Of a stretch of DNA of 64,000 bases, positions 1-20,398 are shown one piece after another. The DNA lies in contig CAWGKD010000022.1 of the NCBI GenBank assembly GCA_963823125.1, positions 13,416 to 77,415 of the forward strand, given 5' to 3'. Each line of letters opens with the position of its first letter. Position 1 is the first letter of the stretch. The position numbers and the translations under genes were made by a program. The notes beneath the pieces were generated by a model. That model searched no databases and was not told the origin of the DNA. It saw only the letters and a list, made by a program, of their open reading frames with translations. Origin of the DNA: an uncultured Bacteroidota bacterium (GTDB lineage: Bacteria > Bacteroidota > Bacteroidia > Chitinophagales > Chitinophagaceae).

Positions 1-748
1 TATCCACTCCTAAACTTCTATTTATAAATCCGTCATTTCTTAATGAATCATATCCGCTTGCTTTTAAATTACCATTCGGGTACATGGTAAAAATAGAATT
101 TCCACTTCCACCGATATAATCAATGAAATTATTAACTAAACTTACCGGAATGGTAGTAAGGCTACCAGCCTGCACAACTCCTGCCGAAACCTGCGTTACC
201 CCATTTTGAAATATATATAATTTTTGGGCAGGAACAGAAAAAGTATCACAAGTAGTTATTTGTGTTGTTGTATCTGTACCGCAAATTTTTAAATGGGTGG
301 AATCTATAAAAGAAACAGTTGCAGTTGCATTAAAAATATTATTAGTAATAAAATGAAATGTATCACACGAATTTGCGCCCGTACAAATCTGAACAGTAAC
401 AGATGAATCAATCTGATTAATAACCTGAACATTTGTTATTGATGTATTGTAGATATTATAAATAGTATTGTTTGTTACTGATGTCTGCTGAATCCATTTT
501 TTAGCTGTGGAATCTCTTACCCATAAAGTACCATCGGGAGTAACTATAACCGAAAAAGCATATTGACTTATTCTTTGAGTATTAGCGGAAGTTGTATCGT
601 GATAACTGAAAATGACAGGTCTTAATTTTGTGCCGCCTTTTGAAGTCAATAAAGTGCTGTCAGAACTTATACTTTGATTAAGCGGATATTGGGCAAACGA
701 AACAATTGCACAAAACAAAAATGATAATATAAATAATATTTTTTTCAT
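1..748 (-). CDS. Secreted protein, 5' part of gene (open to the left window edge)
   Basis: Absent from the ORF track because it is open to position 1. Minus-strand ATG at 748-746, 2 nt after the stop of the upstream gene, reads MKKILFILSFLFCAIVSFAQ/YPLNQSISSDSTLLTSKGGTKLRPVIFSY... This is a hydrophobic signal peptide with an ...FAQ end typical of Bacteroidota. Confidence 0.55.
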   Translation of the reverse strand, partial: MKKILFILSFLFCAIVSFAQYPLNQSISSDSTLLTSKGGTKLRPVIFSYHDTTSANTQRISQYAFSVIVTPDGTLWVRDSTAKKWIQQTSVTNNTIYNIYNTSITNVQVINQIDSSVTVQICTGANSCDTFHFITNNIFNATATVSFIDSTHLKICGTDTTTQITTCDTFSVPAQKLYIFQNGVTQVSAGVVQAGSLTTIPVSLVNNFIDYIGGSGNSIFTMYPNGNLKASGYDSLRNDGFINRSLGVD

Positions 749-1840: not shown

Positions 1841-2011
1841 TTACATATTTTTCTTCTTTTTTACTCTGATTTTTACTTTCTTCTTATGTTCTGGTAATCC
1901 TTTAATATTTGGTGTTTCATGCGCCCATGTGTCTGCTTTATCCTGCATTTCTTTACCAAGATAACCGCCAAAGGATGCTTTCATTTGTGCTTTTGATTCA
2001 AAAGGAGGCAT
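1841..2011 (-). CDS. Small Lys-rich protein (56 aa)
   Basis: Below the track threshold. ATG at 2011-2009 reads MPPFESKAQMKASFGGYLGKEMQDKADTWAHETPNIKGLPEHKKKVKIRVKKKKNM*. It fills an otherwise empty gap. Confidence 0.35.
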   Translation of the reverse strand: MPPFESKAQMKASFGGYLGKEMQDKADTWAHETPNIKGLPEHKKKVKIRVKKKKNM

Positions 2012-2015
2012 ACAT

Positions 2016-2240
2016 TTAAGATTTAAAAGGTTTATCTTTAAAAAGTTCTTTTGCTTTTGCTGCTATATGGTTTGAATGTACTACTTCATCAAATAATTCT
2101 GGTTCTATATTTTCATAATAAACGGTTTGAAAACTATACGGCACAGAATGATTATATCCGATAATACATAAATGTCTTTCTCTGTCATATCCAATGAATG
2201 TTACTTCTCTCCCGTTTACATATTTGAAGTCCTTGCACAT
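2016..2240 (-). CDS. Hypothetical protein (74 aa)
   Basis: Track ORF, co-directional. Confidence 0.5.
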   Translation of the reverse strand: MCKDFKYVNGREVTFIGYDRERHLCIIGYNHSVPYSFQTVYYENIEPELFDEVVHSNHIAAKAKELFKDKPFKS

Positions 2241-2370
2241 TGTCTCATTTTTATTGTTAAACTTTTTTTCTTTTTAACTAACCACAAAACAATTTTATAA
2301 TTACCAAATCTTAAAAAGATATTTAAAATCTTCGTATAAAAATTAAACCAAAAATTATAATACTTCCATT

Positions 2371-3426
2371 TCATTTTCCCATAACATAATTAAATATGAG
2401 TGGACATACAATACTGGCATCGCTTTCAATTATGAATTTAGGCGTTGTCTTATCTATCTTGCTCCAAGTTTGTTTTTCGTTTGGTACTGCTCCACTATAA
2501 GAGCCATAACTTGTTGTCGAATCACTGATTTGGGCAAAATAACTCCAAAATGGTGTTTCTGGTTTCTTTAAATCTAACTTCAATAATGGGACAGCGCAAA
2601 TTGCGAAGTCCCCAGAAATTCCGCCTCCAATTTGGAAAAATCCAATTCCTTCTCCTTTTGCCCATTCAGGATATTGCTCACATAACCAAACCATATAATC
2701 AATTCCATTTTTTACAGTGGATGATTTTAATACTCCATCATAAACTTCTGAAGCAAAAATATTTCCAAGTGATGAATCTTCCCATCCCGGAACAACTATT
2801 GGTAAATTTTTTTCTGCTGCTGCCAACATCCAACTATTTTTAGGATCAATTTCATATTTGTCTTTTAAATCTCCGCTTAATAATAATTGGTATAAATATT
2901 CATGTGGGAAATAAGATTCTCCTTTCTTTTCTGTTTTCTCCCAAAGATTAAACATTAATTTTTCAATCACTTTCATTGCCTGTTTTTCAGGAATACAAGT
3001 ATCGGTAACCCTATTCAAATGTTTTTTTACTAAATCTTCTTCATCGTCAGGTGTTAAATCTCTGTATTCTGGTATTACTACATAATGGCTATGCGCAACT
3101 AAATTAAAAACATCTTCTTCTAAATTTGCACCCGTACAAGATATTGCGTGTATTTTGTTTTCTCGAATCATTTCTGCAAGTGAAATCCCAAGTTCTGCTG
3201 TACTCATTGCACCTGCTAATGAAACTAACATTTTACCGCCTTTATCAATAAGTTCTTTGTAGGCTTTGGCTGCATTTAATAATGTGGCAGCATTGAAATG
3301 TTTGTAATTTTCTTCAATGAATGAAGATATTTTACCATTGGATTTTGGTTTTTCAACTTCCTTATCCTTCGCTAAATGCTTCTTCACCCTTATCTTTATT
3401 CTTTTCATTAAACTATCTGTTGCCAT
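2371..3426 (-). CDS. Deoxyhypusine synthase-like (DHS / homospermidine synthase family) protein
   Basis: 351 aa. LVSLAGAMSTAELG, ISCTGANLEEDVFN, FFQIGGGISGDF and YSGAVPNEKQTWSKI line up with the NAD-binding and catalytic-lysine (..SWGK) blocks of the DHS family. Confidence 0.7.
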   Translation of the reverse strand: MATDSLMKRIKIRVKKHLAKDKEVEKPKSNGKISSFIEENYKHFNAATLLNAAKAYKELIDKGGKMLVSLAGAMSTAELGISLAEMIRENKIHAISCTGANLEEDVFNLVAHSHYVVIPEYRDLTPDDEEDLVKKHLNRVTDTCIPEKQAMKVIEKLMFNLWEKTEKKGESYFPHEYLYQLLLSGDLKDKYEIDPKNSWMLAAAEKNLPIVVPGWEDSSLGNIFASEVYDGVLKSSTVKNGIDYMVWLCEQYPEWAKGEGIGFFQIGGGISGDFAICAVPLLKLDLKKPETPFWSYFAQISDSTTSYGSYSGAVPNEKQTWSKIDKTTPKFIIESDASIVCPLIFNYVMGK

Positions 3427-3447
3427 TTTTTTACTTACCTCCTTCTT

Positions 3448-19328: not shown

Positions 19329-19979
19329 TTATGGTGTTAAATATCCTCCCGTATGAACATAATCAACATTTGGAGGAGGTAAATAAACACCATTATTACC
19401 ACCACCCTGACTATACATTTTATTAATCATTTGATATTGCTGTGCTGAATTTAAGCCTCCAAATATGTTACTTAACCCTGCATTCATAGTTTGATTACCT
19501 CCTGCTGCTTGTCCTGCATATAAATCAGCTTTCATTTGGAATGGCATAAGTTTATTATACTGATAAGCCATTTGGTCTTGCTGTGCCTGCATACCTGCCG
19601 CTTGTCCTAACATCCCGAATCTTTGATTTTGCTGCCCTTCGGCTGCTGTTCCTGCATTAAGCGAAGCATCATTTGCACCCTGTACTAAATTACCGACACC
19701 AGCCAATGCACTACGCCTGTCTTGCAAAGCATTTAATCCTGAACCAACATTTCTTCCAATTTGGTTTTGCTGATTTCTGTATAATGAAGTTGAATACGGA
19801 TTAACATTATATCTCTGTAATGCTGTCTGGTAATAGTTTGCTATGGATGGGCTTTCAGTATATTGTGGTGCATTTTGTAAGTTAGATAAATAATTCTTTC
19901 TCCCTTTGGCTGCTCCTATTGCGCCAAAAATACTTTGAAGCGCACCTGCACCTGCTCCTATAATTGCTGTTGTTGGCAT
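19329..19979 (-). CDS. Gly/Gln/Ala-rich internal virion-like protein (216 aa)
   Basis: N-terminal MPTTAIIGAGAGALQSIFGAIGAAKG, then Gln/Asn/Gly-rich low complexity. Confidence 0.55.
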   Translation of the reverse strand: MPTTAIIGAGAGALQSIFGAIGAAKGRKNYLSNLQNAPQYTESPSIANYYQTALQRYNVNPYSTSLYRNQQNQIGRNVGSGLNALQDRRSALAGVGNLVQGANDASLNAGTAAEGQQNQRFGMLGQAAGMQAQQDQMAYQYNKLMPFQMKADLYAGQAAGGNQTMNAGLSNIFGGLNSAQQYQMINKMYSQGGGNNGVYLPPPNVDYVHTGGYLTP

Positions 19980-20398
19980 GATTCTAATATTGTTACGTTA
20001 TCAATTAAAACATTCAAACCGCATTTTTCTAACCATTGTATTGCCCTTGTATTATAATCAAATAAAATACACTTAAAGTTATTGCCAATCTGTTGTTTTA
20101 TTAATTCAAAAAACTCTTTTAAATTTTTTTCATTTCTGTACTGTTTATTTAAACCAAAACTTATCAGTAATTCAGGTGAAAAAACAAAATAACCTACCTT
20201 CTCTTTTCCATCTAAAATTCCAATAATCGTTTTTGGTTCAGGTAAAAAAAATATTTTTTCTTGCACATTATCACAAACATCATTTATTGTTTTTACCTTA
20301 TATTTTTTATCATAACATTTCAGTATTTCGTAATCATCTTCAAAAGCATTATCTAAATATTCTCTTAATTCATCTGTATTTATTTCAATGACATTCAT
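19958..20398 (-). CDS. GNAT-family N-acetyltransferase-like protein (146 aa)
   Basis: C-terminal ...FKCILFDYNTRAIQWLEKCGLNV resembles the GNAT motif (N.rAi.lYek.GF). Only one motif was seen, so confidence is moderate. Confidence 0.45.
   Translation of the reverse strand: MNVIEINTDELREYLDNAFEDDYEILKCYDKKYKVKTINDVCDNVQEKIFFLPEPKTIIGILDGKEKVGYFVFSPELLISFGLNKQYRNEKNLKEFFELIKQQIGNNFKCILFDYNTRAIQWLEKCGLNVLIDNVTILESCQQQQL

Follow-up and report, generated by a model that had tools for sequence, protein, structure and literature searches.

A putative SpeY-type deoxyhypusine-synthase-family gene in the late block of a crAss-like phage recovered with a Chitinophagaceae bacterium

Every bacterial SpeY tested so far couples two molecules of agmatine to give N1,N9-bis(guanidino)homospermidine (G44G), a compound that is made neither by eukaryotic deoxyhypusine synthase (DHS) nor by bacterial homospermidine synthase (HSS), and that SpeB-type ureohydrolases turn into homospermidine (PMC13625781). 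The tested enzymes include that of the Bacteroidota member Winogradskyella algicola, whose gene is clustered with those for an ancestral-type arginine decarboxylase (ADC) and SpeB (PMC13625781); in SpeY clusters, a SpeD-type fold has been shown to be neofunctionalised to arginine decarboxylase (PMC10407285). In the active site of the Thermus enzyme, CdmS/SpeY, the equivalents of Asp243 and Asp316 of human DHS are Phe and Leu, and agmatine is held through its guanidyl group by the equivalent of Glu323 (PMC10981699). A survey of viral polyamine enzymes detected no SpeY homologue in any virus or phage (PMC9992855), and our literature searches found no later report of a viral SpeY. Here we describe a gene of the Pfam family DS that encodes 351 amino acids (aa) and lies at 2371..3426 on the minus strand of a 64,000-nucleotide (nt) stretch, called the window throughout, of contig CAWGKD010000022.1 (C22:13416-77415). 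The contig belongs to the assembly of an uncultured Chitinophagaceae bacterium (GCA_963823125.1; 23 contigs, 3.55 Mb), and we argue that it derives from a crAss-like phage and that its DS gene is of the bacterial SpeY type.

An initial sequence-only reading of the window had assigned the gene to the DHS family, and this assignment is borne out. The product matches Pfam PF01916 (DS) with an expectation value (E) of 3.9e-41 and a score of 141.7 bits against a cut-off of 27, over residues 43-347 and profile positions 10-287 of 288. Its profile matches in the PDB are archaeal and eukaryotic DHS chains, and the profile search gave no other fold. The AlphaFold (AF2) model, built on a 24-sequence alignment, has a mean predicted local distance difference test score (pLDDT) of 86 and a predicted template-modelling score (pTM) of 0.84; all 50 of its top-ranked PDB matches are DHS, with template-modelling (TM) scores of 0.66-0.71 at 16-22% identity, and the phage protein is confidently predicted to have the DHS fold. 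The block PNEKQTWSK, which had been taken for the context of the catalytic lysine, aligns with EAISWNK and EAVSWGK of solved DHS structures. In the hidden Markov model alignments TWSK323 stands opposite human SWGK329 and archaeal SWNK, which places the catalytic lysine at K323 (codon 2458..2460, minus strand; K329 in human DHS, K299 in CdmS), a residue invariant in all 24 aligned homologues.

We mapped the remaining active-site residues on human DHS in 1RLZ numbering, a mapping that reproduces the known D313, D316, E323, W327, K329 and D342. The human residues E137, D238, E323, W327, K329 and D342 are kept, as E104, D217, E317, W321, K323 and D336, and none of the mapped catalytic and cofactor-site positions varies among the 24 aligned sequences. 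The conservation of residues binding nicotinamide adenine dinucleotide (NAD) and spermidine, which the sequence-only reading had proposed to check, was found in part. The NAD-binding acidic residues E104, D217 and D336 are conserved, whereas D313 is replaced by Tyr307 across the whole bacterial subfamily, and none of the spermidine-binding residues D243, H288 and D316 is kept (N222, D273 and Y310). The human triplet K287-H288-H289 reads G272-D273-F274. Both tyrosines, Y307 and Y310, which replace human D313 and D316, lie in the active-site loop TTSYGSYS (residues 304-311; 2494..2517, minus strand), which was located by alignment and has low confidence in the monomer model. The motifs GGGI[AS]GDF and SYGSYSGA are common to all cellular relatives and to distant representatives at 38-57% identity, and the replacements in the active site are therefore not specific to phages.

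This combination is that of the SpeY/CdmS enzymes. Like Thermus thermophilus CdmS, Anabaena SpeY and W. algicola SpeY, the phage protein joins the PF01916 fold and the catalytic Lys, Trp and Glu to the loss of both spermidine-binding Asp residues. The equivalents of D243 and D316 are N222 and Y310 (F204 and L286 in CdmS), and the equivalent of Glu323 is retained as E317 (E293 in CdmS). With human DHS (1DHS/6XXM) and archaeal DHS (8PUT) it shares the fold (TM ~0.7), the NAD-site residues E137, D238 and D342 and the context of the catalytic lysine, but it is only 16-22% identical to them, has Asp243, Asp316, Asp313 and His288 replaced, and has no eIF5A substrate at hand: a search for eIF5A/aIF5A (PF01287) found no match in the whole assembly, the phage contig included. 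With the D243, D316 and H288 equivalents lost and no eIF5A in phage or host bin, the spermidine-using hypusination considered at the outset finds no footing here.

The homologues of the phage protein fall into two tiers. The upper tier consists of ~15 proteins of 347-373 aa, 70-81% identical, on contigs of up to 80 kb; the lower comprises thousands of ~325-aa 'deoxyhypusine synthase family proteins', 63-69% identical, from Chitinophagaceae, Sphingobacteriaceae and other Bacteroidota. Across the sampled Bacteroidota lineages the cellular copies are 84-93% identical among themselves. An ADC homologue adjoins the DS gene in 9 of 157 cellular loci, four of which also hold an arginase-family gene (Bacteroidales, Marinilabiliales, Roseivirga sp. 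and Saprospiraceae metagenome-assembled genomes, MAGs), and in a Flavobacteriaceae MAG the ADC gene lies directly upstream of the DS gene. Clusters of the form ADC-(SpeB)-DS occur at the cellular loci L023, L057, L059, L090 and L173 (our loci carry L numbers). In three subfamily members (P0121, P0124 and P0147), which share 44-53% identity with the phage protein, an AdoMet_dc (SpeD-type) domain is fused to the N-terminal side of the DS domain; in P0121 (756 aa) an NNMT/PNMT-type methyltransferase domain stands between the AdoMet_dc and DS domains. The context of the cellular subfamily is thus the architecture of the agmatine-dependent pathway. Cluster architecture and the 84-93% conservation of the single DS gene across the sampled Bacteroidota strongly imply orthology to the validated SpeY. 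The cellular orthologues are found in ADC-SpeB-SpeY clusters, and the phage protein likely catalyzes the same reaction as SpeY/CdmS. From its sequence features, we conclude that the phage gene is of the bacterial SpeY type and is not a hypusine-making DHS.

To place the phage copies we used a maximum-likelihood tree of 120 sequences, 79 of them cellular Bacteroidota. The window copy and 16 phage or metagenomic homologues form one clade, with a value of 100 in the Shimodaira-Hasegawa-like approximate likelihood ratio test (SH-aLRT), outside the clade of 79 cellular sequences. Because the phage copies form a clade of their own, they represent an old phage-borne lineage that was not acquired recently from this host. 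In the same tree L010-L012 form a second viral clade and L013 a third lineage, both separate from the clade of the window. An attempt to place the phage clade within one Bacteroidota family failed, as it branches outside the sampled cellular clade and the deeper forks are not resolved. Pairwise ratios of nonsynonymous to synonymous substitution rates (dN/dS) within the phage clade are 0.05-0.17, approximate values since dS is saturated, and by this measure the phage copies are under purifying selection.

The gene is not confined to the window. In IMG/VR a profile scan recovered DS genes, with identities of 47-70%, on 39 viral contigs, and homologues are present on at least 10 phage contigs with phage neighbour genes. 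A tblastn search of 50,697 GenBank phage records returned no DS gene, and a PHROGs scan of the open reading frame (ORF) and nine neighbours gave no PHROG family for it. Two IMG/VR contigs classed as viral, L200 (39.9 kb) and L202 (130 kb), have an arginase-family gene directly upstream of the DS gene; this pair could be a viral module covering two steps, or else cellular DNA that has entered IMG/VR.

Both flanks of the DS gene are occupied by phage genes. Contig C22 has 81,638 bp and a GC content of 33.5%, against ~36.5% in the large contigs of the assembly, and no terminal repeat was found at its ends. Its long minus-strand late block holds a portal gene (31385-33796), a terminase fragment, several 'virion structural' PHROGs, tail-fibre-like genes, a GIY-YIG homing endonuclease and a gene for an 880-aa protein with the crassvirus muzzle C-terminal domain crAss_MUZ_C, above the Pfam cut-off. 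Relatives with the same DS gene also encode crAss_MUZ, crAss ring and polyvalent giant proteins. Since crAss-like markers are present both in C22 and in the DS-carrying relatives, the C22 element is a crAss-like phage. The DS gene stands at the distal end of the late block, co-oriented with the late genes and downstream of those for a 954-aa and a 151-aa protein. The earlier description of the gene as embedded in a virion module is a fair one for this block, with its portal, virion proteins and muzzle, although the PHROGs scan of nine neighbours and Pfam gave no recognisable function for the immediate neighbours. A Shine-Dalgarno-like AAGGAGG (3438..3444, minus strand), read from the sequence, precedes the DS ATG by 11 nt; a scan for promoters and terminators at the locus showed nothing notable.

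The presumed host is the bin's Chitinophagaceae bacterium, which has a DS gene of its own on contig C16. This copy (324 aa, 65.7% identical to the phage copy) stands alone among housekeeping genes and groups with Chitinophagaceae in the tree. The ADC and ureohydrolase neighbours of SpeY are seen for cellular members of the subfamily; in the host the ADC-like and arginase-family genes lie elsewhere in the genome, and neither is on the phage. The ADC-like gene is at C3:858382, with speA as its best NCBIfam match, and an arginase-family gene at C3:615492-616403 shares 50% identity with the gene next to SpeY at the Roseivirga locus. For the two host arginase-family genes the best scores are for arginase or are weak; the host assembly yielded no dedicated agmatinase, and agmatine deiminase and SpeD were not found there. 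A search of the phage contig for arginase/agmatinase, ornithine or arginine decarboxylase, agmatine deiminase and SpeD found none. The other families of the pathway being absent from its contig, the phage supplies the SpeY step only.

Taken together, these results make it likely that the phage SpeY copy is an auxiliary metabolic gene that feeds the host homospermidine pathway in late infection. We infer SpeY chemistry, and with it substrate and product, from family membership and the active-site signature, and the purpose, polycations for DNA packaging, replication or translation, from the late-operon position and from the dependence of phages, as of eukaryotic viruses, on polyamines (PMC9992855). 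By analogy with human DHS and Thermus CdmS, the enzyme would oxidise the primary amine of agmatine with NAD+, carry the resulting 4-guanidinobutylidene group as an imine on Lys323, pass it to a second agmatine and reduce the product with enzyme-bound NADH, releasing G44G ('diagmatine'). Since the phage encodes no other polyamine enzyme, host ADC would supply the agmatine and the host arginase-family ureohydrolase would convert G44G to homospermidine. Homospermidine is the main polyamine reported for bacteria of the Flavobacterium-Cytophaga-Sphingobacterium group. As the gene is part of late expression, the additional enzyme would increase the supply of polycations while the genome is replicated, translated and packed. 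Among the roles offered by the sequence-only reading, polyamine synthesis is favoured by this evidence, and modification of a translation factor or virion protein has no positive evidence. Its proposed substrates, spermidine and putrescine, give way to agmatine, which the SpeY subfamily is known to use (PMC10981699, PMC13625781).

The viral homospermidine synthases of chlorovirus PBCV-1, Ralstonia phage phiRSL1 and Imitervirales offer a viral parallel, being virus-encoded and leading to the same end product under the same auxiliary-metabolic-gene logic, but they are non-homologous, putrescine-dependent enzymes related to carboxyspermidine dehydrogenase (PMC9992855). The chlorovirus enzyme, which had been cited as a paralogue of DHS, is of this bacterial HSS type (PMC9992855). 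No homology to the HSS type (carboxyspermidine dehydrogenase/lysine 6-dehydrogenase) was found for the window protein, whose matches in Pfam, NCBIfam and the PDB are to the DS family only. As with the phage SpeD-derived arginine/ornithine decarboxylases and other phage polyamine genes (PMC9992855, PMC10407285), one host-derived step is carried by the phage and the rest is left to host enzymes; unlike those decarboxylases, the window gene concerns a different step and a different fold, and its phage is without SpeD, ADC, agmatinase and deiminase.

Several observations weigh against a simple SpeY gene in the service of the host pathway. The phage protein scores far below the cut-offs of the NCBIfam equivalogs NF002699 (90.5 bits, cut-off 500) and NF001980 (107.9 bits, cut-off 450), as does the chromosomal copy of the host (83 and 101 bits). 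The Bacteroidota-type subfamily is outside the coverage of these models, and its SpeY assignment consequently rests on subfamily context and not on a curated equivalog. No Winogradskyella SpeY was among the 80 loci returned by a Flavobacteriaceae-seeded genome scan, and the tree was built without the validated W. algicola SpeY. The differences described between CdmS and human DHS are confined to Asp243 and Asp316, whereas the whole subfamily of the window copy also has His288 replaced by Asp273 and Asp313 by Tyr307. The residue before the catalytic Lys is Gly in cells and variable in phages, and the phage copies are 63-68% identical to the cellular ones compared to 84-93% among cellular Bacteroidota copies; a shifted specificity is therefore possible. 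Unlike the described SpeY and CdmS, the window copy is phage-encoded and stands alone, without ADC or ureohydrolase, in a separate clade; a disordered N-terminal tail and a KTSC-domain partner gene of its own set it further apart. The simple metabolic-gene model leaves the tails, the KTSC partner and the divergence of the phage clade unexplained. Phage and host are linked by co-binning only; a search for CRISPR (clustered regularly interspaced short palindromic repeat) spacers or DNA shared with the host gave one 27-nt near-match, inside a chromosomal coding region and outside any array.

The enzyme could instead be a classical DHS-like homospermidine synthase, moving an aminobutyl group from spermidine or putrescine onto putrescine with no agmatine intermediate. 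Plant HSS and eukaryotic DHS are capable of aminobutyl transfer onto putrescine, the fold and the catalytic Lys, Trp and Glu would be the same, and the best NCBIfam match of the phage protein is called 'homospermidine biosynthesis protein'. We nevertheless consider this improbable, as N222 and Y310 occupy the places of Asp243 and Asp316, which bind the amino groups of spermidine, and the cellular relatives are clustered with or fused to arginine decarboxylase. Moreover, every bacterial SpeY tested requires agmatine and a ureohydrolase (PMC13625781), and a putrescine route is not evident in the host, where no agmatine deiminase was found and no dedicated agmatinase identified.

The viral copies differ from the cellular ones at the N-terminus. 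In the window, residues 1-30 (MATDSLMKRIKIRVKKHLAKDKEVEKPKSNGK; 3337..3426, minus strand) form a virus-specific, Lys-rich tail with no counterpart in cellular homologues. Before the conserved ISxF motif, the leader is short in cellular loci (median 3 aa, n = 157) and longer in viral ones (median 17 aa, n = 51). Tail residues 1-27 have pLDDT <50 in the model and are predicted to be disordered except for a short helix at 5-16. After M7 no in-frame Met occurs until M66, which already falls within the conserved core, and translation must therefore include the tail. Tail sequences are clade-specific, for example MLPREMK... and MPFFRSVKQ... beside the Lys-rich tail of the window; a separate viral DS clade (L203-L215, L013/L198; 47-61% identical) has the common leader MLPRE(M/I)K-x-P-x-(E/D)VKL-x-G. 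The hexapeptide KIRVKK is present both in the DS tail (RIKIRVKKH, 3385-3402, minus strand) and at the C-terminus (KVKIRVKKKK) of a 56-aa ORF (1841-2011, minus strand) two genes downstream of the DS gene. The pattern K[IVL]R[IVL]KK occurs three times in the six-frame translation of the phage contig, compared to 1.7 times per million aa in the remaining assembly.

A tail of this kind may be a packaging or targeting signal, and the enzyme a virion cargo that is carried in the particle or ejected with the DNA, which would be compatible with SpeY chemistry. Disordered N-terminal tails recur in several independent viral clades, the hexapeptide is common to the tail and the nearby ORF, and the gene belongs to a stretch of late genes that encode giant proteins (954 aa and 1619 aa in the window). 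In relatives it is found directly after the muzzle gene (L176) or beside genes for polyvalent proteins of 2885 aa (L016) and 3001 aa (L017, with three genes between). However, the tail sequences are not conserved between clades, the DS gene and its partner lie among head genes in L015 and among small non-structural genes in L016 and L177, and a late-operon position is no proof of incorporation into the particle. We give this explanation little weight, too.

The partner, an obligate one, is a 74-aa KTSC-domain gene downstream (2016..2240, minus strand), recognized through the Pfam matches of its homologues, a PDB profile match and synteny. Pfam KTSC (PF13619) is matched by four of five aligned homologues (best E 6e-6), the window copy itself not reaching E<1, and the five-sequence profile matches the 'KTSC domain-containing protein' of PDB 7X8C (E 7e-7), which puts the gene in the domain family at profile level. 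KTSC-domain proteins have been described as DNA-binding partners of HerA-type systems (PMC9503650). Across the DS loci, a KTSC gene is downstream of the DS gene in 14 of 14 loci with context, and within the clade of the window a small KTSC-family gene follows DS in all 10 loci with enough flank, while the other neighbours differ. The position of the cassette varies: in L176 it follows the muzzle gene, in L017 and L175 a gene for an 816-aa protein, and in the window the 954-aa and 151-aa genes, and in L015 it is flanked by head genes. Only 12 members of this KTSC subfamily came back from a profile search of 5.8 billion proteins, and all those with context lie beside a phage DS gene; the KTSC neighbour is absent from cellular DS loci and from the three other viral DS clades. 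Unlike other KTSC proteins, the subfamily of the window is found only beside phage SpeY and has an additional leader of ~42 aa. In L219 and L220 an FMN-reductase gene (FMN_red, PF03358) is inserted between the DS and KTSC genes.

In the window this leader is encoded in a separate, overlapping frame. The interval 2241-2370, which had been described as a 130-nt AT-rich spacer, is coding: it is filled by a 52-codon ORF (2216..2374, minus strand) whose ATG overlaps the DS stop (ATGA). Its aligned counterparts are ORFs of their own in L017 and L175, and in L015 and L176 the first ~42 aa, in frame, of longer KTSC proteins. The interval from DS stop to KTSC start is 122-130 nt, a length kept in seven loci. 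The leader ends ~25 nt into the KTSC frame in the window, and the split into leader and KTSC body recurs in L017 and L175, with a single continuous ORF in L015 and L176. The split reflects either two genes in a conserved arrangement or a site of programmed frameshifting; RNA structure of the supposed spacer is not significant (z = -1.25).

The SpeY-like enzyme, its tail, the ~42-52-aa leader and the KTSC protein could form one functional unit, either a DNA-condensing or virion-loaded maker of guanidino-polyamine or a hypusine-like alkylator; polyamine may be made on or for the phage genome, or a lysine of KTSC or of another phage protein may be alkylated. We regard such a unit as a long shot. 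Still less probable in our view is the alkylation of protein lysine or another macromolecule by aminobutyl or guanidinobutyl transfer, with the KTSC protein as target or adaptor. The enzyme-imine chemistry of the family permits a protein-Lys acceptor, divergence around the catalytic Lys is unusually high in the phage clade, the viral copies have their additional tails, and the KTSC subfamily is found solely beside phage DS genes (12 of 12 database matches, 14 loci) despite the shifting position of the cassette. Yet neither phage nor host has an eIF5A homologue, the three other viral DS clades are without a KTSC partner, the active-site signature is that of small-molecule SpeY enzymes, and the KTSC loop that carries a Lys in relatives has none in the window copy. 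KTSC as a hypusine-like substrate was rejected, there being no conserved loop lysine.

In one relative the active-site loop is the site of an intein. The DS gene of L220 (L220:3-2078) carries an intein of ~435 aa (CISGDT...VFIHN|S) exactly between the equivalents of Y310 and S311. L219 is recorded together with L220 for an interrupted DS gene and for the FMN_red insertion. Mis-binned or chimeric bacterial DNA, or a decaying passenger without phage function, is very hard to credit: the assembly is a draft of 23 contigs (92.3% complete and 1.5% contaminated by the tool's estimate) and C22 has no terminal repeat, but phage genes lie on both sides in an 81.6-kb contig, the closest relatives are on other phage contigs in a clade apart from all 79 sampled cellular sequences, all catalytic positions are kept at a dN/dS of ~0.1, and one relative hosts the intein in its active-site loop.

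Two further ORFs of the late module call for mention. A late-block ORF of ~1083 aa (window 2-748, minus strand, continuing into C22:10915-13415) has a signal-peptide- or lipoprotein-like N-terminus (MKKILFILSFLFCAIVSFAQ), which is unusual for a phage structural gene. The ORF at 19958-20398 (minus strand), previously read as a GNAT acetyltransferase-like gene, has no GNAT match in Pfam, and a six-frame search with PF00583 gave 13 matches in the genome and none on the phage contig; its sole match is a sub-threshold one to DUF6434 (E 7e-4).

SpeY therefore occurs in uncultured crAss-like and other phages of environmental Bacteroidota, at no fewer than 14 metagenomic loci and on 39 IMG/VR contigs, and the recently defined agmatine-dependent route to homospermidine is extended to the virosphere. 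The uncharacterised KTSC domain gains a first testable functional association, and the tails, the KTSC partner and the intein provide experimental handles on whether viral SpeY does more than the cellular enzyme. If hypusine-like alkylation were true, no bacterial virus would previously have been known for a protein modification of the deoxyhypusine type. The occurrence of SpeY in phages also suggests which step of the pathway limits during infection.

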